In this document: positions 1-20,540 of the stretch, in pieces
Layout: each line of letters begins with the position of its first letter
How positions within the stretch are numbered: the first letter of the stretch is position 1
NCBI GenBank assembly: GCA_964620055.1
Contig: CAZUGW010000004.1
Coordinates: forward strand, 1-29,807
Source: an uncultured bacterium
Lineage (GTDB): Bacteria > Armatimonadota > Hebobacteria > Hebobacterales > Hebobacteraceae
Length of the DNA: 29,807 nt
Direction: 5' to 3'
Position numbers and translations under genes: made by a program
The notes under the pieces: model-generated
What the model saw: the letters and a program-made list of their open reading frames with translations, nothing else
What the model was told of the DNA's origin: nothing
Database searches by the model: none

Positions 1-86
1 GGGGCCAGGGGCCAGGGGTCCCTCTGGGGACGGCGTTGCCGCCCCAACGGGACGGCAGAGCCGCCAGGGGCCAGGGGCCAGGGGGT
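1..86. repeat. Short tandem GGGGCCA heptamer repeats in two clusters
   Basis: ggggcca-ggggcca-gggg at 1-18 and gccagggggccaggggccaggggg at 63-86. Confidence 0.7.
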
Positions 87-335
87 TGAGGGGGGAGGGG
101 TAGCGGGGTGGGCTGCTCGTGGCGATAGCCCTCTGCTCATACGTATGAATGTGTGAGGCGGGAGGGTTTGGAGTCTGTGGAGTGAGTCTCCGGGTCGGGG
201 ACTTTGGACGGGAAGTCTCCCGGTTGGGGCGGACTGCGGGGACTTCGCGATTCTGATCTGTGGACTCGGTGAACAGGCAAGGCATGGCCGGAGTGACGGG
301 CGGAGGGGCAGGGCCGAGGCGATCAGGTTGCTCAT
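1..335 (-). CDS. Possible Pro-rich ORF running off the left edge of the window (MSNLIASALPLRPSLRP...)
   Basis: AGGAGG (348-343) lies 7 nt before ATG at 335, and the frame has no stop down to position 1. The translation is low-complexity and overlaps repeats, so it may not be coding. Confidence 0.2.
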   Translation of the reverse strand, partial: MSNLIASALPLRPSLRPCLACSPSPQIRIAKSPQSAPTGRLPVQSPRPGDSLHRLQTLPPHTFIRMSRGLSPRAAHPATPPPSTPWPLAPGGSAVPLGRQRRPQRDPWPLA

Positions 336-379
336 GTCATTTCCTCCTGGAAACAACGGTAAAGCAAGATCTCTCACCA

Positions 380-418
380 CCCTTCGCCCTCGCTACGCTC
401 GGCCTCAGGGTAGGCTCC
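380..418. repeat. REP-like element of the CCCTTCG...CTCAGGG(T/C)AGGCT type
   Basis: cccttcgccctcgctacgctcggcctcagggtaggctcc resembles a common intergenic palindromic repeat class; recognised from memory. Confidence 0.45.
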
Positions 419-447
419 GGCACGAAGACACAAAGGCAAAGGGAAAA

Positions 448-471
448 GGGCACGGCAGGCCGTGCCCCTAC
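448..471 (-). repeat. GTAG-type REP palindrome
   Basis: The minus strand reads GTAGGGGCACGGCCTGCCGTGCCC: a GTAG foot plus a 9-bp stem gggcacggc/gccgtgccc. Confidence 0.65.
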
Positions 472-608
472 TGATTCTCGCTACATTATACCAGGAGCTG
501 TCAAGGGGCGAGGGCGCAAGAGCAGGTGGGTTACTTGTAGTTTATGGTGAAGGGAAGTGGCGGTTCTTGGCGGATTTGGTGCGCGACGGGAGATGGGTTG
601 GTTGGGAC

Positions 609-655
609 GGGTCGAGGAGTCGAAGAGTCGAAAGGCGAGGAGTCGAGAGGCGAGG
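609..655. repeat. Degenerate 7-8 nt tandem repeat (GAGTCGA(A/G) / AGGCGAG)
   Basis: gggtcgag gagtcgaa gagtcgaa aggcgag gagtcgag aggcgagg. Confidence 0.6.
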
Positions 656-688
656 GGCCCGGGCCAAGAACAGGAAGGCAGTGAGTCT

Positions 689-779
689 GTCTCCCCCGCT
701 CCGGCGGTCCCCCGCCCCTGGAACCAGATCGGCCCACGGTGAAGCTGTGCGCCCACCCGACCGCCGGAGCGGGGGAGAC
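689..779. repeat. 91-bp element with perfect 21-bp terminal inverted repeats (MITE-like or long hairpin)
   Basis: gtctcccccgctccggcggtc (689-709) is the exact reverse complement of gaccgccggagcgggggagac (759-779). Confidence 0.75.
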
Positions 780-933
780 GGGAGGGGTGCGGAGTGGCAG
801 AAGACGAGCTTCTGCCCAACGGGTAGCAGATTGTGCCCGAAGCATCCCCTGCACCTTAGAGGGTAACGGGTTCTCAGGGTAAAGTAATGATAAGGCGCGA
901 CGCGGCCTGCACAGCGTCTACAGGGGTAACCCA

Positions 934-1635
934 ATGTTCGTACGGGAATCTGACATGGTTGCGCCGGTGACTCGCTGGATGAGGTCCAGCGTTGGCATCG
1001 AGGCCGTTAAGTCGGAATTTGTGACTCCGTGGGGCATTTGTGACCTCGTCGGCCTCACCTTCAACTCAGAGAATGTCGGTCGTCGCCTCCAACAGAAGCA
1101 GACGCGGGCGATCAGTTCGATCACGCGCGCAGTGCTGCTACTTCAGATCCCCGATGTCGAAAAGAGGAAGGCGACGACGCTCGACAAGCTGATCCGCCAG
1201 TTCGCGCCGTCGATCCCTGAAGAAGTCGTGTCCGCGCAAGTCGCTCGTCTCATTGCTGACAACTTCGTCGTACCCCTGCCGCGCGGGCGACTCAAGAAAA
1301 CAAACGGCTGGATGCCACTGCAAAACCGCCTGGTTGCCGTTGAATTGAAGCTGTCGCGCATAGACGAGGCGATGCACCAGGCGTTGAACAACCTCGGGTT
1401 CGCTGAAGAGTCGTACGTCGCCCTGCCTGCCGAAACGGCGCGTCGCGTGGCATCGGGCGCATCCCGCTGGTCAGGGTTTCTCGACGCCGGCGTAGGGCTG
1501 CTCGGAGCAACGCGCCAAGGCTGCGAGGTCTTGGTGCGAGCCCGCAAGACACGCAAGGCTCGGAACTGGACCGATGCGGCCATCCAGCTCTACTGCGTCG
1601 AGAAGTTCTGGCGTACCCGCGTCAAAGACAACTGA
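934..1635 (+). CDS. PD-(D/E)XK-like (MmcB/sce7726-like) nuclease-fold protein with a probable helical/wHTH insertion, 233 aa
   Basis: RESDM...EFVTPWGICDLVG (acidic residue), a ~95-aa insert, then VAVELKL (ExK) and AMHQALNNLGFAEESYVALP, matching the QA..Y/F...YVALP tail of MmcB-like nucleases. Confidence 0.6.
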   Translation: MFVRESDMVAPVTRWMRSSVGIEAVKSEFVTPWGICDLVGLTFNSENVGRRLQQKQTRAISSITRAVLLLQIPDVEKRKATTLDKLIRQFAPSIPEEVVSAQVARLIADNFVVPLPRGRLKKTNGWMPLQNRLVAVELKLSRIDEAMHQALNNLGFAEESYVALPAETARRVASGASRWSGFLDAGVGLLGATRQGCEVLVRARKTRKARNWTDAAIQLYCVEKFWRTRVKDN

Positions 1636-2830
1636 GCATCAGCGACTCTGCCACGGCCTCGGGTCTGCGATCCGTTCCTTTGTGTTTTAGGGGTGGCAGA
1701 GACTTGCCCAACGCATAGGCTGCCGATAGGTCCTGGAACAACGCTATAGAGCGACCCGCTCTGGGCTCGGCTGCGATGCTGTTGAACCACTGCTTGTAGA
1801 ACGTGGCTACTTGCTCCTTCGCCCGAGCCGAATCGCCTAACTGTGTGTAGCTCCTCTTGATCTCGCTGAGTTCCACGCACACTGGGTGCGCTGGGGCGAG
1901 TTCCGCAGTGGCCTCGTCGAGCCATGCCTTGAGTTCAACTTCGCGGACGACGCGCCGCCGAAGCGACGGCAGTGCCAGCCTGACGGTGGGCTTATCTCTT
2001 CTCGTGATAGGGGTTCCAGGCATAAGGTACTGGTAACCAGTGCCAACGCCGATCGCTGGATAGTCAACGAGGCCCCTAGCCCACAGCACCAGATTCAGTC
2101 CCCAGTAGGGCCCGGCGATCCTTGTATTGGTCGTGATCGCTCTGTTGAGTTCCTCATGCAGAGCGATCACGCCCGGAAATCGCTTATTCCTCAAGGTGGG
2201 CGAGCCGCTGTCGTCTATCAGGTTCGTGTCAACGACCCAGAACCCATCCGCCTGGGCCTCGTGGTAGCACCGTTCGGCCTGCTGTACCTTCGGGTTCCGT
2301 GCAGTCTTCTTGTTGACCTGGTCCTGGTGCGTGAACACGAGCGGTAGGATCAGATGCCCCGGGAAGGTGCTGTTACTCTTCCACATGCCGGTCTCCGCCG
2401 CCAGTGCGCGGTTGATCTTGTTGCGGTACGGGCCATCGACCAGTGGCAACTGCGGCACCGTGATCCAAGCGGGGTTGTGGCGATTACACTCCTGCATCAC
2501 CGCCTCAACGAAGGCATGGACTTGGGCGGCATCTGGCTTCTCATGACCAGCAGGGTCGCCGATACTGTCGAAATAGGGGAACCTGCTCATGAACTTGAAC
2601 CAAGGATTAGCCCTCTCGCTATTGTTGCGGTGATCTCTGATGATGCGCCGTGACCCAAGATCGTCCATCCCATCGACGCACGGGTCCAGCCACACCTTCG
2701 CGCCATGCAAGAGAGGAATCAGCCTATCGGCCCTATCCAGCGGCACCCGGACGAAGGCTGAGTCGGAATACAGGTCATTTACGAGACCGCAGACGTCGTC
2801 ACCCGTGATGAAGGGGATGTGGTCGGCCAT
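1622..2830 (-). CDS. Uncharacterised 402-aa protein, possibly an alpha/beta (TIM-like) barrel
   Basis: Long ORF with RBS GAGGTG 8 nt after the FRG stop. Alternating strand/helix pattern (VWLDP, WITVPQLP, LILPLVF, GFWVVD, RIAGPYWG, ARGLVDYPAIGVG). No family recognised with certainty. Confidence 0.75.
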   Translation of the reverse strand: MADHIPFITGDDVCGLVNDLYSDSAFVRVPLDRADRLIPLLHGAKVWLDPCVDGMDDLGSRRIIRDHRNNSERANPWFKFMSRFPYFDSIGDPAGHEKPDAAQVHAFVEAVMQECNRHNPAWITVPQLPLVDGPYRNKINRALAAETGMWKSNSTFPGHLILPLVFTHQDQVNKKTARNPKVQQAERCYHEAQADGFWVVDTNLIDDSGSPTLRNKRFPGVIALHEELNRAITTNTRIAGPYWGLNLVLWARGLVDYPAIGVGTGYQYLMPGTPITRRDKPTVRLALPSLRRRVVREVELKAWLDEATAELAPAHPVCVELSEIKRSYTQLGDSARAKEQVATFYKQWFNSIAAEPRAGRSIALFQDLSAAYALGKSLPPLKHKGTDRRPEAVAESLMLSCL

Positions 2831-2838
2831 AGCTCACC

Positions 2839-3654
2839 TCATAACCTCGCTGCGCGTCGGAGATGGGAGCAGACATGCTCAGGTTCCGGAAAGATGAACA
2901 TCTCTCCCATGCCTACTCGCTCGAGTTCGTCCAGGAGTGCTGCTTTGTGCTCCTTCAGGATGGGAACGTACAGGAGAGAACTAGCCTGATGCCTGTCCAG
3001 GTCAAACCTGCGAGAGCCGTGTAACGTGAACACCCCATTCTGCATAGCGATGCGTTCGGTATTCCAGGTCGGGTTGATCGCAATGGTTCGTTTCCCTCTG
3101 GCGCTTAGCCGCCCGCCGAGTCCGAAGTATGGGCTGATGATGTCCGCGTCCTTCTGGGGGCTGAAAACGCGAGGCGACCTCGGATCGGCGCGCTGGTTCA
3201 GCTCGATGGGGTTCAGGATGACGACCAGGCCATCTGCATCCTGGTCCTGGGAACACGCGAAGAACAGCGCGACCGCTGCATTCTGAGTCCAATCCAACAG
3301 TCGGGTCGGGAGTCCATAGTGCTGAGCCACCTGCATCCACCCCAGTTCGTCTTCAACTGCAGGAGGGCGTGGCAGCTTCATCTCCAGGAACCGCTTCATG
3401 TCGCTCACGAGGCCTAGCGCCCGATCTCTACTCTCGACTTCGTCATAGCGGAGAGCGGACGGCACGAGCCTGTAGTCCACCCGAGGATGTCCACGAAACC
3501 AGAACACCTTGTTGGGCTCAAGGAGCGAGTGGAACACGCCGAAGAAATCGCTGAGTGAGGCGATGACGTCATCCTTGTACATCGGGCAGTCGATCGGGCA
3601 GCGGCGGTAGCGCCGATCGAGGTCGCGGCGAAGTCCTGTCATCGTTGCGGGCAT
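2839..3654 (-). CDS. FRG domain-containing protein, 271 aa
   Basis: FWFRGH...LVPSALR, QVAQHYGLPTRLLDWTQNAAVALFFAC, RIAMQNGVFTLHG and the C-terminal LLDELERVG...FIFPEPE are FRG (PF08867-type) signatures. Confidence 0.93.
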   Translation of the reverse strand: MPATMTGLRRDLDRRYRRCPIDCPMYKDDVIASLSDFFGVFHSLLEPNKVFWFRGHPRVDYRLVPSALRYDEVESRDRALGLVSDMKRFLEMKLPRPPAVEDELGWMQVAQHYGLPTRLLDWTQNAAVALFFACSQDQDADGLVVILNPIELNQRADPRSPRVFSPQKDADIISPYFGLGGRLSARGKRTIAINPTWNTERIAMQNGVFTLHGSRRFDLDRHQASSLLYVPILKEHKAALLDELERVGMGEMFIFPEPEHVCSHLRRAARL

Positions 3655-3918
3655 ACGAGATCATCTCCACAGATCAGACGGCTATAGACAACCTCCTAGT
3701 ACGAAGCCTTCCCTACTATTTGTTTATTCAGCGCGAGTTTTTTGGTCTTCGAACTTATCCTGCTATTCGTTGACTAGGAGCTTGTCTCCTGCCGCTTCTT
3801 GGTGATTCGACCCTTGCGCTGTGACAGGACGCAGGCTATGGTCAACGCCTCAGGTCGGATTCCCACATGTCCCATGCGCCCTCCCCTCCGGCACCTCTGC
3901 CCGGGCGCAGTCTCTCTC

Positions 3919-4092
3919 TCACCGCTGAACGGTACTGCTCAGGTAGCCCCGCAGTTCCTCCACCAGCGCGTACTTGCGCGCTTTGCGCGAGGGGTCAGCA
4001 ATGGTGAGCCAGCCGTCTGTCACCCACTTGGCGAGGAGGGTGCGGGCCGTGCGCGCGGATAGGCCGAGGGTGTGGGCGACGTCGGATAGGTT
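3919..4092 (-). pseudogene. Start-less gene remnant encoding a C-terminal winged HTH resembling the tail of Fic-family proteins
   Basis: The frame reads NLSDVAHTLGLSARTARTLLAKWVTDGWLTIADPSRKARKYALVEELRGYLSSTVQR*, has an in-frame TGA directly upstream (4095-4093) and no start codon at its 5' end. The Fic assignment is from memory of similar C-termini. Confidence 0.6.
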
Positions 4093-4108
4093 TCAGGGCC
4101 CACAAGAG

Positions 4109-4133
4109 GCAGGCGGGACGCCTGCGCTCCCAG
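4109..4133. repeat. REP-like palindrome GCAGGCGGGACGCCTGCGCTCCCAG
   Basis: 7-bp stem gcaggcg/cgcctgc plus a GCTCCCAG tail, a common REP architecture. Confidence 0.55.
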
Positions 4134-4311
4134 GGGGCGAAGCCACGGAGGGGGGTCGGGGCAGGCTCTGCGCTGCGGTTCCGTGGTCACTGCAGATAGC
4201 GAAGCGCGGTAGTGCTGCTATTTCTCCGATGGGCTGTCGCGGCGCGGCGACAGGTAGATATGAGGAATCAGAGCGCCCTCGGCGCTCTGGCGTGAGCGAA
4301 CGGCGCGGCGC

Positions 4312-4962
4312 CTAGGCCGCGGCCATCATTTTGCGGATGCTCTTGCCGATCTTGCGCTTGGCGCGCTGGAGGGCGTTGTCCACGGACTTGACGCGCCGGC
4401 GCAGTTCCGCGGCGATTTCCTGGTAGGACTTGCCTTCTAGGTGGCCGCGCAGCACGGCGGACTCGAGGTCGCTGAGTTCGCGCTTGATGCGGTGGCGCAG
4501 GTCGTCGGAGAACTGCTGGGTGATGACGACCTGCTCCGGGTCGGACTTGTCGGACTCGGCGAGGGTGTCGAGCAGGGTGCGGTCGGAATCGGAGTCGAAG
4601 AGACTGGCATGCAGGGAGACGTAAGAGTTGAGCGGGATGTGCTTCTGGCGGGTCGCCGCCTTGATGGCGGTGAAGATCTGCCGGCTGATGCACAGTTCTG
4701 CGAAAGCCCGGAACGGAAGGAGCTTGTCGTTGCGGAAGTCCCGGATAGCTTTGAAGAGGCCGATCATGCCTTCCTGGACGATGTCCTCGTGATCGGCGCC
4801 GATCAGGAAGTAGGAGCGGGCCTTGCCCTCTACGATGCTGCGATACTTGGACAACAGATGCTCCGTGGCCCGAGCGCTGCCGCCTTTGGCGTATCGCACA
4901 ACCTCTTCGTCTAGCATGCCGTGGAACGTCATGGGCATGTCGCGCAGGTAAGTGTCAGGCAC
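4312..4962 (-). CDS. sigH: RNA polymerase sigma factor SigH (Spo0H-like)
   Basis: KARSYFLIGADHEDIVQEGMIGLFKAIRDF, FRAFAELCISRQIFTAIKAATRQKHIPLNSYVSL and GKSYQEIA...KSVDNALQRAKRK. Start placed at GTG 4962 (GGAGG 8 nt upstream); the ORF extends to 4980. Confidence 0.93.
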   Translation of the reverse strand: MPDTYLRDMPMTFHGMLDEEVVRYAKGGSARATEHLLSKYRSIVEGKARSYFLIGADHEDIVQEGMIGLFKAIRDFRNDKLLPFRAFAELCISRQIFTAIKAATRQKHIPLNSYVSLHASLFDSDSDRTLLDTLAESDKSDPEQVVITQQFSDDLRHRIKRELSDLESAVLRGHLEGKSYQEIAAELRRRVKSVDNALQRAKRKIGKSIRKMMAAA

Positions 4963-5123
4963 TACTGCCGCCTCCACCATCAGAAGTCAAAGTGAACTCA
5001 ACAGACAGTTGAAGGAGCACAACACACGACTGGGCGGCTTTTCGATAGGCTCCTCCCGCGATGGCAGAGCGGTTTCTCGCAGCTTGGGCCCGGACCTGCA
5101 CCGCCGCTGACCCGGACTTTTCG

Positions 5124-5152
5124 ATTATAGGGGAAGGTTTTCGCGCCGTCAA
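5124..5152 (-). promoter_or_regulatory. Sigma70/SigA-type promoter upstream of sigH
   Basis: TTGACG-N17-TATAAT on the minus strand. Confidence 0.75.
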
Positions 5153-5244
5153 GCGCGACCCCGGTCGGACTTCGTAAATAGTCGGCAAAAAGCCGATTTT
5201 CTGGGAAGTTTTCGCGACGCGCGGCGCCTCCGCGCGCGCTTTGG

Positions 5245-6681
5245 CTACTTTCTACGCCAGGAGGTTCCGTCGGGTCGGTCCTCCAGCGCGATCCCCAACT
5301 CCCCCAGCCGCGCCCGGATTCCGTCGGCGATGGCGTACTGCCCCGCCTCCCGGGCCTGCCGGCGCACCTCGATCAGGAGTTGCATCAGGTCGTTCGCCAG
5401 GCCGTGCGCCGCCGCCGTTTCCTGCTGGAGGTCGAGGCCCAGCACCCCGGCCAGATCCACCAGCGTCCGGTTCACCGCGGCCAGGGTGTCGTGCCCGGCC
5501 TGGGAGGGCGCGAAGGTGACGTTGGCGCTCGCCGAGACGCGGTTGAGCGCGCCCACCAGTCCGTGCAGCGAGGCCAGGGCGCGGGGGGTGTTGAAGTCGT
5601 CGTCCATCGCCTCCTCGAAGTCGGCGGCGGCCGCGACGCGCACCTCGGTCAGCTCCGCCAGGTCCTCCCCTCCGGCCTTCACCGGGGAGGAGAGCAGTCG
5701 CTCCAGGGTCTGGCGGGCGATGTGGAGGCGCTCCAAGGCGCGCTGGGACTGTTCCAGGGCCGATTCCGTGAACGGGATGGCGCTCCCGTAGTGGGCGGCG
5801 AGGCAGAAGTAGCGCAAGGCCGGGCCGCCCGTGCGCAGGATCGCCTCGCTCAACGGGATGACGTTGCCGATTGACTTGCTCATCTTTTCCGCGGAAAGGT
5901 CGAGCATGCCGTTGTGCATCCAGTACCGGGCGAACTGGCACCGGCAGGCGGCCTCGGACTGGGCGATTTCGTTTTCGTGATGGGGGAAGATGAGGTCGCT
6001 CCCGCCGCCGTGGATGTCGAAAGTGTCGCCCAGGTACTTGCGGCTCATGGCCGAGCATTCGATGTGCCAGCCCGGTCGCCCGGGTCCCCACGGGCTGTCC
6101 CAGCTCGGCTCGCCCGGCTTCGCGCCCTTCCACAAGAAAAAGTCGCGGGGGTCGCGCTTGCGGGTGTCTTCCTCCACCCGCGCCCCGGTGAGTTGGGAGT
6201 CGAAGTCGCGCTTGGAGAGCTTGCCGTACCCGGGGAAGCTCGGGACGTGGAAGGCGACATCGCCGTCCAGGGCGTAGGCGTGTCCTTGCGCGACCAGCGT
6301 TTCGATGAGGGAGATGATCTCGGGAATGTGCTCGCTGGCGCGGGGCATGGCGCTGGGAGGGAGGACATTGAGGGCGGCCAGGTCCCGCACCAGGTCCTCG
6401 GTGTAGCCCTCGGCCAACTCTTTCCAGCCGCGCTCCTCCTGCGTCGACGCGGCGATGATCTTGTCCTCCACATCGGTGATGTTGTAGATGAAGGTCACCT
6501 CGTAGCCGCGATGCAGCAACCAGCGGCGGACGATGTCGAACGCGACCGCGGACCGGCCGTGGCCGATGTGGGCCGGGGCGTAGGAGGTGACGCCGCAGAC
6601 ATACATCGCGACCTTGCCCGGCTCGCGGGGGGTGAATTCCTCTTTGGCGCGCGTCAGCGTGTTGTAGATGCGAATGGACAT
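5245..6681 (-). CDS. cysS: Cysteine--tRNA ligase
   Basis: MYVCGVT, HIGH, NITDVEDKII, WDSPWGPGRPGWHIECSAM, DIHGGGSDLIFPHHENEIAQ, KMSKS, C-terminal ADGIRARL...LEDRPDGTSW. Confidence 0.98.
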   Translation of the reverse strand: MSIRIYNTLTRAKEEFTPREPGKVAMYVCGVTSYAPAHIGHGRSAVAFDIVRRWLLHRGYEVTFIYNITDVEDKIIAASTQEERGWKELAEGYTEDLVRDLAALNVLPPSAMPRASEHIPEIISLIETLVAQGHAYALDGDVAFHVPSFPGYGKLSKRDFDSQLTGARVEEDTRKRDPRDFFLWKGAKPGEPSWDSPWGPGRPGWHIECSAMSRKYLGDTFDIHGGGSDLIFPHHENEIAQSEAACRCQFARYWMHNGMLDLSAEKMSKSIGNVIPLSEAILRTGGPALRYFCLAAHYGSAIPFTESALEQSQRALERLHIARQTLERLLSSPVKAGGEDLAELTEVRVAAAADFEEAMDDDFNTPRALASLHGLVGALNRVSASANVTFAPSQAGHDTLAAVNRTLVDLAGVLGLDLQQETAAAHGLANDLMQLLIEVRRQAREAGQYAIADGIRARLGELGIALEDRPDGTSWRRK

Positions 6682-6693
6682 TGCTATGCCTTA

Positions 6694-6775
6694 AGTAAAA
6701 AGTAAAAGGTAAAAAGGCAAAAAAGGATAGGATAACTTACTCTGATTTTTGCCTTTTGCCTTTTTACTTTTGCCT
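6694..6775. repeat. Inverted pair of AAAAGGC/AAAAGTA heptamer-like tandem repeats between cysE and cysS
   Basis: agtaaaaagtaaaaggtaaaaaggcaaaaaagg ... tttttgccttttgcctttttacttttgcc; the cysE TAA stop (6766-6764) falls inside the right arm. Confidence 0.75.
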
Positions 6776-7429
6776 TGCCTCCACCAGCAGCCGCGCCTGC
6801 AACTGCTCTAATCTGCGCTCGTACTCCTCGAAGCGCAGGCTGATCTCTCTCATGCACTGCTCGCACGGGTCAACCTGCGTGGCGCCGGAGGTGGAGGTGA
6901 AGGCGATCCGCTTGCCTTGCTCCCGCACCGTGCGGGCCGGGACTCCCACCACGGTGGAGTCCGCGGGCACGGAGCGGATCACTACCGAGCCAGCGCCGAT
7001 GAGGGCGTTGTCGCCAATGACGATGTTGCCCAGGACGCTGGCTCCCACGCCCACCACCACGTTGTTGCCCAGGGTAGGGTGACGCTTTCCGGTCTCTTTC
7101 CCGGTGCCGCCGAGGGTGACGCCCTGGTAGAGCGTGCAGTTGTCGCCGATCTCGGTGGTCTCGCCGATCACGGTGCCCATGCCGTGGTCAATGAACAGGC
7201 CGCGGCCGATGCGCGCGGCGGGATGGATCTCGATCCCGGTGAGAAAGCGGGCGATCTGGGAAAGGAACCGCGCGCTCAGGCGGAGGCGACGGCCCCACAG
7301 CCAGTGCGCCAGCCGATGCAGAATGCTGGCGTGCAGGCCGGGGTAGCAGAGCAGGACCTCCAGCCGACTCCTCGCCGCCGGGTCCCGCTCCAGCGCGGCC
7401 CTGATGTCGGAACGAATTCCCTGAAACAT
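6764..7429 (-). CDS. cysE: Serine O-acetyltransferase
   Basis: [73 protein letters not shown]. Start at ATG 7429 after GGGAGAGGTG. Confidence 0.97.
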
Positions 7430-7456
7430 CACCTCTCCCGTGACGTGCGCTGGCTC

Positions 7457-7486
7457 AGTATATCGGCGGGCTTTCTTGAGTGTCAA
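7457..7486 (-). promoter_or_regulatory. Sigma70-type promoter for cysE-cysS
   Basis: TTGACA-N18-TATACT on the minus strand, ~28 nt upstream of the cysE start. Confidence 0.7.
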
Positions 7487-7555
7487 GGCGCGCCCAATCC
7501 GGGCGCGCCAATCTGGGCGCCGCGGGCGGGAGGGCGGCACGTGTCATGTCGGTTC

Positions 7556-7825
7556 TCACGAGATCCGGTATATCTTATCTCCCGGGTGCACCTTCTGGGG
7601 CACGGCGATGCCCACCGAGTCGCCGGGATTGGCCTCGGCCACGTCCCCGTGCTCGATCTGCATCGAGTCCACGGTCATCACGAAGTCCTCGGAGTGACCC
7701 TTGATATGGAGCTTGTCGCCGACGTGCAATCGGTCTTTCAACTCCACCGCCATCACCCCGAGGTGGCCGTAGTAGTGAGACACCAGGCCGACCTCTGTCT
7801 CCTGCGGTACGTTCGCGGTCATCAT
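7556..7825 (-). CDS. Small beta-barrel 'translation elongation factor-like' protein (EF-Tu domain II / peptidase U32 C-terminal-like)
   Basis: EVGLVSHYYGHLGVMAVELKDRLHVGDKLHIKGHSEDFVMTVDSMQIEHGDVAEANPGDSVGIAVPQKVHPGDKIY; RBS GAGGTGA before ATG. Confidence 0.8.
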   Translation of the reverse strand: MMTANVPQETEVGLVSHYYGHLGVMAVELKDRLHVGDKLHIKGHSEDFVMTVDSMQIEHGDVAEANPGDSVGIAVPQKVHPGDKIYRIS

Positions 7826-7899
7826 ACTCACCTCTGTCCGTGATCTCCTCTATGTACAGTACAGCCGAGATGGGGCAGGTAGTGTCGAGGAGACAAGAC

Positions 7900-20310: not shown

Positions 20311-20540
20311 GCGGCTGAGGTGCAGTCGCCTCGGCCGACGGTTCCTTCCTCTCGTTGAGTTGTCCTACCCTTGACGGTATTCGTCTCTGACGCGCGTGGC
20401 CATGGCCGCCGATGCGCAGGAGCCCCGGACGGATGGCCTCGGTCGTCCTCCCCACGCGCCCGCTCGGAAACCGGCCTCCCGCCTGACCCGCCATCCGGCT
20501 CCCACGGTTCGTGAGTCGGCGCCCGCGGGGAGCACCTAAG
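20311..20540 (+). ncRNA. Candidate structured ncRNA forming a long rod with a central bubble (6S RNA-like)
   Basis: Nested helices symmetric about ~20426: GGTGC/GCACC (20319-23/20532-36), GCCGAC/GTCGGC (20334-39/20515-20), CGGTATTCG/CGGAAACCG (20375-83/20465-73), GCGCGTGG/CCACGCGC (20392-99/20452-59), GCCGA/TCGGT. G-U pairs favour the plus strand. Confidence 0.45.

Follow-up and report, generated by a model that had tools for sequence, protein, structure and literature searches.

What binds together three adjacent genes, one of them an FRG-domain gene and the other two outside the catalogued protein families, near the end of a contig from an uncultured bacterium of the phylum Armatimonadota? 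The contig (CAZUGW010000004.1, assembly GCA_964620055.1) belongs to an 84%-complete metagenome-assembled genome (MAG), and was analysed over its entire length of 29,807 nt, referred to here as the window. An initial annotation had proposed that positions 934 to 3654 hold a defence cassette, consisting of the FRG gene, a gene for a 402-aa barrel-like protein, and a convergent gene for a PD-(D/E)XK-like nuclease. The arrangement of these genes is far beyond chance, its order and its overlap recurring in about 100 independent loci. The trio is almost certainly a genuine conserved three-gene module, and is probably a conflict or defence system.

Organization of the locus

The block contains three open reading frames (ORFs), which together with their junctions and one inserted domain are arranged as follows (TGT, tRNA-guanine transglycosylase).

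2839–3654, minus strand: FRG-domain protein, 271 aa; first gene of a two-gene operon (PF08867, E = 5.5e-21)
2831–2838, minus strand: 8-nt spacer between the FRG and barrel genes, read from the sequence
1622–2830, minus strand: predicted TIM-barrel protein, 402 aa, with a TGT-like fold (AlphaFold2 model and Foldseek; no family match)
1622–1635, shared by both strands: 14 nt in which the 3′ ends of the convergent barrel and nuclease genes overlap, read from the sequence
934–1635, plus strand: predicted PD-(D/E)XK nuclease, 233 aa, convergent to the FRG-barrel operon (invariant residues and AlphaFold2 fold)
1063–1314, plus strand: predicted winged-helix (winged helix-turn-helix) insert of the nuclease, residues ~44–127 (AlphaFold2 secondary structure and Foldseek)

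The ORFs lie exactly as the initial annotation had described them, and its statements on their junctions hold. The FRG and barrel genes share a strand and are translationally coupled: the FRG stop codon is overlapped by the ribosome-binding site GAGGTGA, which directly precedes the barrel ATG at 2830, 8 nt after the stop. The 14-nt convergent overlap is likewise present in the sequence. The lower GC content attributed to the block was also confirmed, the values in 500-nt intervals being 0.57–0.61 over 1001–4000, compared with 0.63–0.73 in nearly all of the remaining window. None of 400 other genomes sampled from the phylum, among them 14 of the same family, was found to carry the cassette. This absence from relatives, together with the low GC content, shows that the cassette was acquired horizontally.

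Conservation and mobility of the module

The occurrence of the trio was examined in 107 loci, comprising 24 from reference genomes, three from IMG/VR and 80 from metagenomes, the last being seeded with the most divergent members of the barrel family. All loci were searched with profiles of the three proteins, and the counts refer to loci with room for the neighboring gene. The nuclease gene was present downstream in all 89 such loci, and the FRG gene was present upstream in 76 of 81. Gene order and strands were identical in all loci analysed, the three genes forming an obligate unit of fixed geometry. In 93 of 96 loci, the 3′ ends of the convergent genes overlap as well, by 14 nt in 55, 20 nt in 22 and 4 nt in 7, and the gap between the FRG and barrel genes ranged from −8 to 17 nt, the commonest value being 8 nt. 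Pairwise protein distances of the trio are correlated (Spearman rho 0.62–0.75, 59 distinct trios), which indicates that the genes move together and are not reshuffled.

The hosts span at least six phyla, among them Planctomycetota, Binataceae, Proteobacteria, Gemmatimonadetes, Verrucomicrobiae and Acidobacteriota. A homologous locus is also carried by a cultured planctomycete, Rosistilla carotiformis Poly24 (CP036348). The distribution across phyla is patchy, despite highly similar sequences. The possibility of a variable effector slot was also considered and rejected, as the 80 metagenome loci of divergent barrel relatives show no effector other than FRG.

The loci that lack a member of the trio are informative as to the relation between its genes. 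In three of the five loci without FRG, the barrel gene is truncated, frameshifted or reduced to a fragment; the nuclease there is full-length, and retains all six of its conserved residues. FRG beside a lost barrel was found at no locus, except for one frameshift in a long-read MAG. Such an order of decay would be expected if FRG depended on the barrel, and if the nuclease required no protection made by the barrel.

The initial annotation had left it to neighborhood analysis to decide whether homologs of the three genes occur together near defence genes. As the counts given above show, they do occur together, and defence genes are found beside them. Nine trio neighborhoods were annotated. At one locus (L035, IMG/VR UViG_3300048836_000712, 82–7885), a complete type I restriction-modification (R-M) operon (hsdM, hsdS, hsdR) ends 32 nt before FRG. 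Other defence neighbors are a type III-like R-M system, DUF1156/DUF499/SNF2 systems and GmrSD. One neighborhood contains an integrase together with TIR and PIN proteins, another contains an integrase and a D5 primase, and further neighbors include transposases, HicAB and BrnT. The flanks vary from locus to locus, and the cassette behaves like autonomous island cargo of the defence or toxin-antitoxin type.

The contig that carries L035 is classed as viral, and glycosyltransferase genes lie on the other side of its trio, so it may represent an island and not a phage.

Predicted structures and activities of the three proteins

The FRG assignment of the first protein stands, given its match to PF08867. 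The protein also matches the PADLOC model PDLC04938 (PDC-S15) over essentially its full length (residues 25–268, E = 6e-47). PADLOC lists PDC-S15 as a phage-defence candidate made up of one gene; here, in contrast, FRG is tied to two more genes that have no PADLOC models. The initial annotation knew of no named system with this three-gene composition; FRG on its own is already a named PADLOC candidate. No experimental validation of PDC-S15 was found in the literature.

Alignment of 65 FRG homologs revealed invariant residues that include W52, R54, G55, H56, H112, T117, R118, D121, W122 and T123 in the N-terminal half, and N198, R201, Q205, H212, E251, E257, E259 and H260 further along the chain. 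The initial annotation had also referred to a proposed resemblance of FRG to the ADP-ribosyltransferases (ARTs), and a paper in J Bacteriol in 2020 was reportedly the first to call it ART-like. This agrees with published work, in which FRG is treated as ART-like and as a predicted NADase or effector (PMC9503650, PMC12522546). Taking its membership from this literature, we infer that the FRG protein is an ART-superfamily-like predicted effector.

The 402-aa protein was modelled with AlphaFold2 using family alignments, giving a predicted local distance difference test score (pLDDT) of 92.6 and a predicted template modelling score of 0.91. The model is a TIM barrel, in agreement with the earlier description of the protein as barrel-like: an eight-stranded beta/alpha barrel is followed by helices, a C-terminal hairpin (strands 381–383 and 386–388) and a helix (392–401). 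In a Foldseek search of the PDB, the best matches were the TGTs 2ash and 6rkq (E ~4e-4, query-normalized TM-score (TMq) 0.47–0.52), and TGTs ranked 1, 3 and 5. In BFVD, phage TGT homologs were in the top 10, among the best named matches.

The invariant polar residues of the barrel (R28, D49, Q127, Q169/Q171, D206, Y242/W243/N246 and R291–R293) fall at or just after predicted strands, where the residues of an active enzyme would be expected. The zinc-binding motif of the TGTs is CxCxxC...H. This motif is absent from the barrel protein, and the only cysteines invariant among 34 sequences are C188 and C401. Neither the protein nor the members of its family alignment have a match in Pfam, NCBIfam or PADLOC, and PF14350 matches neither the protein nor any of 34 family members, even at E ≤ 10. 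The family is compact: a word-based search placed at least 443 homologs in it, and when 1.84 billion representatives were searched exhaustively with HMMER, 312 clusters at 50% identity were obtained, nearly all of them 385–430 aa in length. We predict that the barrel protein is an enzymatic regulator or partner of FRG.

The identification of the third protein as PD-(D/E)XK-like was supported by both its residues and its fold. Among 82 homologs, E5, E28, D37, E137, K139 and Q149 are invariant, and the predicted catalytic set (E28, D37, E137-x-K139 and Q149) is intact. In the AlphaFold2 model (pLDDT 91.3), the order of strands and helices fits the alpha-beta-beta-beta-alpha-beta core of PD-(D/E)XK enzymes. 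The best Foldseek match was 3dnx (SPO1766; E = 3.8e-3, probability 0.96), which we take to be a representative of the PD-(D/E)XK (MmcB-like) family.

The core is split by the winged helix, which is inserted between the second strand, carrying D37, and the third strand, carrying E137-x-K139. By Foldseek, this segment resembles the winged helices of MarR, Fur, IclR, BrxR and Rpa2. Neither the nuclease nor the members of its alignment matched any Pfam, NCBIfam or PADLOC model, and PDB sequence searches with the barrel, the nuclease and FRG gave no significant match.

Comparison with P4 gop-beta-cII and TIM-B systems

The layout of the trio resembles that of the gop-beta-cII system of phage P4. 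In P4, gop (247–648) is followed after 2 nt by beta (651–1718), and a convergent cII gene (1746–2540) is annotated as 'sce7726 family protein'. As positive controls, P4 cII matched NF033832 (E = 2.5e-44) and P4 beta matched the PADLOC beta model (E = 8e-188), PADLOC having models named gop, beta and cll. In E. coli, the P4 system confers protection from lambda and P1, and gop becomes toxic when beta is missing (PMC9122126); the cell-death response of the system is set off by a phage gene (bioRxiv 10.1101/2023.04.06.535777).

Beta (PF14350), under the name TIM-B, has been unified with the TIM barrel found in deazaguanine transglycosylases. TIM-B is combined with swappable effectors, namely HigB, a restriction endonuclease (REase), Pol-beta, GNAT, sirtuin, a RES-type ART, caspase and two-transmembrane proteins. 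The systems carry a convergent overlapping REase gene, and TIM-B was proposed to act as a constitutive restraint on the effector (bioRxiv 10.64898/2026.10.19.760177).

Both P4/TIM-B systems and the trio have an effector gene, closely followed on the same strand by a gene for a TGT-like TIM barrel of ~355–400 aa, and then a convergent gene for a PD-(D/E)XK-type REase. In TIM-B systems, the REase gene overlaps the 3′ end of the barrel gene as it does in the trio, and the C-terminal hairpin and helix described for TIM-B are both present in the model of the 402-aa protein. Both are mobile and occur in defence hotspots. The TIM-B effectors include another ART clade, RES, and the trio has the ART-like FRG. 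Certain features set the two apart. The effector in P4 is the membrane protein Gop, whereas that of the trio is FRG; the P4/TIM-B REases carry helical or helix-extension-helix extensions at their ends, whereas the nuclease here has a winged helix inside its catalytic core; and the convergent genes of P4 are separated by a 27-nt gap, whereas those of the trio overlap by 14 nt.

The initial annotation had drawn a different parallel, to the sce7725/sce7726 pair (NF033831/NF033832) beside a RES-domain gene. This pair likewise consists of a ~300–400-aa protein and a small PD-(D/E)XK nuclease, and since P4 cII is a member of the sce7726 family, the pair belongs to the same kind of system. The parallel holds for architecture, beta being a TGT-like barrel with RES-type ARTs among its effectors: every element of the TIM-B architecture recurs in the trio, where the ART-like FRG occupies the place of the effector, which makes the analogy sound. 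It does not extend to sequence, as NF033831 and NF033832 match no family member here, even at E ≤ 10, and neither PF14350 nor PF26915 gave a match.

On these grounds, we propose that the trio may be a self-contained mobile conflict module, most likely acting in anti-phage abortive infection, with a P4 gop-beta-cII/TIM-B-like layout; we give this reading an even chance of being correct.

Several observations weigh against this proposal. FRG is not among the TIM-B effectors in the main text of bioRxiv 10.64898/2026.10.19.760177. The members of the barrel and nuclease alignments have no match to PF14350, NF033831, NF033832, PF26915, or PADLOC beta or cll. Profile–profile comparison with hhalign gave a probability of 0.2–0.5% for the barrel against a 26-sequence beta alignment (0.5% with 155 barrel sequences, effective number of sequences 5.1), and 0.4% for the nuclease against a 29-sequence cII alignment. 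The likeness of the barrel to TGTs is modest (TMq ~0.5, root-mean-square deviation ~7 Å), other TIM barrels scoring almost equally, and the 50 best matches to the barrel fold in BFVD do not include P4 beta. The argument from the order of decay concerns five loci only, some of them from error-prone MAGs. Finally, the defence function of the trio and the catalytic chemistry of FRG are predictions.

The profile comparisons can be set against a control. Beta itself, compared by hhalign with canonical TGT, gave a probability of 0.07%. Because this control is equally blank, the negative profile results show that the families are distinct, and do not show that they are unrelated. When the winged-helix insert was removed from the nuclease, its comparison with cII gave E = 0.0048 and a probability of 7%, with the ExK strands aligned, which is suggestive and not significant. 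We conclude that the trio is a strong candidate for a distinct, uncatalogued branch of the gop-beta-cII/TIM-B kind, or else a convergent copy of it.

Two further observations concern TIM-B barrels in general. PF14350 Beta_protein genes, relatives of P4 beta, were found in three of 401 sampled genomes of the phylum of the window (L031, L032, L033), and canonical TIM-B systems are thus rare in this phylum too. The PADLOC model PD-Lambda-2_C likewise matches P4 beta (E = 8e-14), which indicates that the experimentally found PD-Lambda-2 contains a TIM-B-type barrel as well.

Proposed mechanism and alternative explanations

If the trio is an abortive-infection module, the FRG protein would be its toxic effector, an enzyme belonging to the ART superfamily and acting as an NADase or ADP-ribosyltransferase. 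In uninfected cells, the barrel enzyme would hold FRG harmless, either through an inhibitory small molecule or through covalent modification of FRG. Infection would lift this restraint, and FRG would then stop the cell. The nuclease may serve as a second, DNA-directed effector and also as a regulator, with DNA binding provided by its winged helix, and overlapping convergent transcription could set its expression against that of FRG and the barrel. The chances that the trio acts by this specific TIM-B-like mechanism, variants included, appear evenly balanced.

The same genes could be read in other ways. By fold, the barrel is matched best by base-exchanging transglycosylases of the TGT/DpdA superfamily (PF01702), phage TGT homologs among them. 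The nuclease carries a winged helix of a DNA-binding type, and its separate convergent transcription unit recalls the independent control found in R-M systems. These features would suit a Dpd-type modification-restriction system, in which the barrel, maybe with a substrate made by FRG, exchanges or modifies a base of host DNA or tRNA, and the nuclease restricts incoming unmarked DNA. We consider such a system unlikely. The likeness of the barrel to the superfamily does not extend to sequence or profile (no PF01702 match; hhalign probability 0.1%), the CxCxxC...H zinc site is missing, and the nine annotated neighborhoods contain no queC/D/E or folE-type genes for 7-deazaguanine synthesis. A PF01702 search of the genome of the window found only a canonical Tgt, on another contig, so that the genome retains its own enzyme elsewhere. 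Moreover, three decayed loci keep an intact nuclease beside a broken barrel and no FRG, which a barrel-dependent restriction enzyme should not tolerate. A related idea gives the barrel a larger catalytic part. FRG and the barrel might form a two-enzyme nucleotide pathway, in which FRG converts NAD+ into an ADP-ribose-linked intermediate, free or bound to a nucleic-acid base, and the barrel carries out base or ribosyl exchange; the product would be an unknown signalling nucleotide, or a nucleic-acid modification, that controls the nuclease or is read by it. The barrel would then be a new catalytic branch of the transglycosylase fold rather than a mere antitoxin. We regard this scheme as quite improbable.

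A selfish addiction module of the toxin-antitoxin kind, maintaining itself by post-segregational killing with no anti-phage benefit to the host, would fit the order of decay and the tight coupling of FRG to the barrel, as well as a cassette that crosses phyla and often lies beside integrases, transposases and other toxin-antitoxin pairs. It is nevertheless doubtful, as the trio is also often found directly beside defence genes of the R-M, GmrSD and DUF1156 types, the P4 module of analogous architecture does confer phage protection, and the nuclease, an always-present third gene, would be superfluous for simple addiction. A housekeeping or metabolic operon unconnected with conflict, serving for example nucleotide salvage or tRNA modification, is disfavored to the point of being highly improbable. 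The barrel does resemble an enzyme with a conserved active-site face, but its cassette is missing from all the other sampled genomes of the phylum, those of the same family included; the patchy occurrence of highly similar sequences across phyla, the low GC content, and variable flanks rich in mobile elements also speak against such an operon.

Were the trio shown to be an immune system, it would be a widespread addition, the barrel family alone numbering ~300 metagenomic clusters at 50% identity, to the little-understood group of systems with TGT-like barrels, whose tested examples are P4 gop-beta-cII and PD-Lambda-2. The FRG domain, until now a computational ART-like candidate, would gain a definite genetic partner, and a biochemical role open to testing. 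The analysis also provides two protein families outside Pfam, NCBIfam and PADLOC, with high-confidence models and candidate catalytic residues. With its conserved convergent overlap, the trio also provides a compact model of how colliding transcription may exert control, and defence-annotation tools that now call FRG as the single-gene PDC-S15 should model three genes.

Related kinase cassettes

A search with the nuclease profile detected distant homologs in 16 further genomes of the phylum of the window (E = 2e-27 to 1e-5). In four loci of this phylum, a Ser/Thr protein kinase adjoins the distant nuclease homolog, with the following arrangements.

L153, 2796–5762: kinase followed by a 405–434-aa protein (no Pfam family), on one strand
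L157, 2817–5672: kinase followed by a 405–434-aa protein (no Pfam family), on one strand
L159, 2793–5780: kinase followed by a 405–434-aa protein (no Pfam family), on one strand
L152, 4863–7666: kinase fused to a C-terminal region of ~400 aa, beside the nuclease homolog

In these cassettes, the kinase takes the place of FRG. In three of the loci, all genes lie on one strand, unlike the convergent trio. The ~400-aa proteins showed no significant similarity to the barrel family by hhalign (probability <1%), and no description of such cassettes was found in the literature. They suggest a common core, made up of a nuclease and a large protein, with a swappable first enzyme.

Flanking sequences and minor features

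On the right, the trio is followed by 657 nt (3655–4311) between the FRG start and the gene of an extracytoplasmic function-type sigma-70 factor (4312–4980), and then by cysS (5245–6681) and a serine-acetyltransferase-like gene. The interval 3655–4311 contains no Pfam-recognizable ORF and gave no family match. On the left, positions 1–933 form a G-rich, repeat-bearing contig end without a convincing ORF, consistent with the repeat-rich flank noted earlier. GGGGCCA heptamer repeats occur at 1–18 and 63–84, a 15-nt tandem repeat occurs at 621–655, and a perfect 21-nt inverted repeat (689–709 and 759–779) lies ~155 nt upstream of the nuclease start. This stretch may be an island boundary, or an element resembling repetitive extragenic palindromes.

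Over the whole window (1–29807), Rfam at gathering thresholds and ARAGORN returned zero RNA families and zero tRNAs, and a suggested 6S-like RNA at 20311–20540 scored below the Rfam 6S threshold. A sigma-70 scan of 600–4400 found no promoter. A conserved promoter or operator upstream of the nuclease was also considered and rejected as a general feature of the module, since a TAnAAT..GATGA box is present only in five of 70 distinct loci, all in one subclade, and is absent from the window. In these five loci (L002, L003, L004, L011 and L012; mean of shuffled sequences, 0.5), the box has the form TA(G/T/A)AATC(C/T)GATGA and lies 42–64 nt upstream of the nuclease start codon, where it is probably the promoter or operator of that one subclade.

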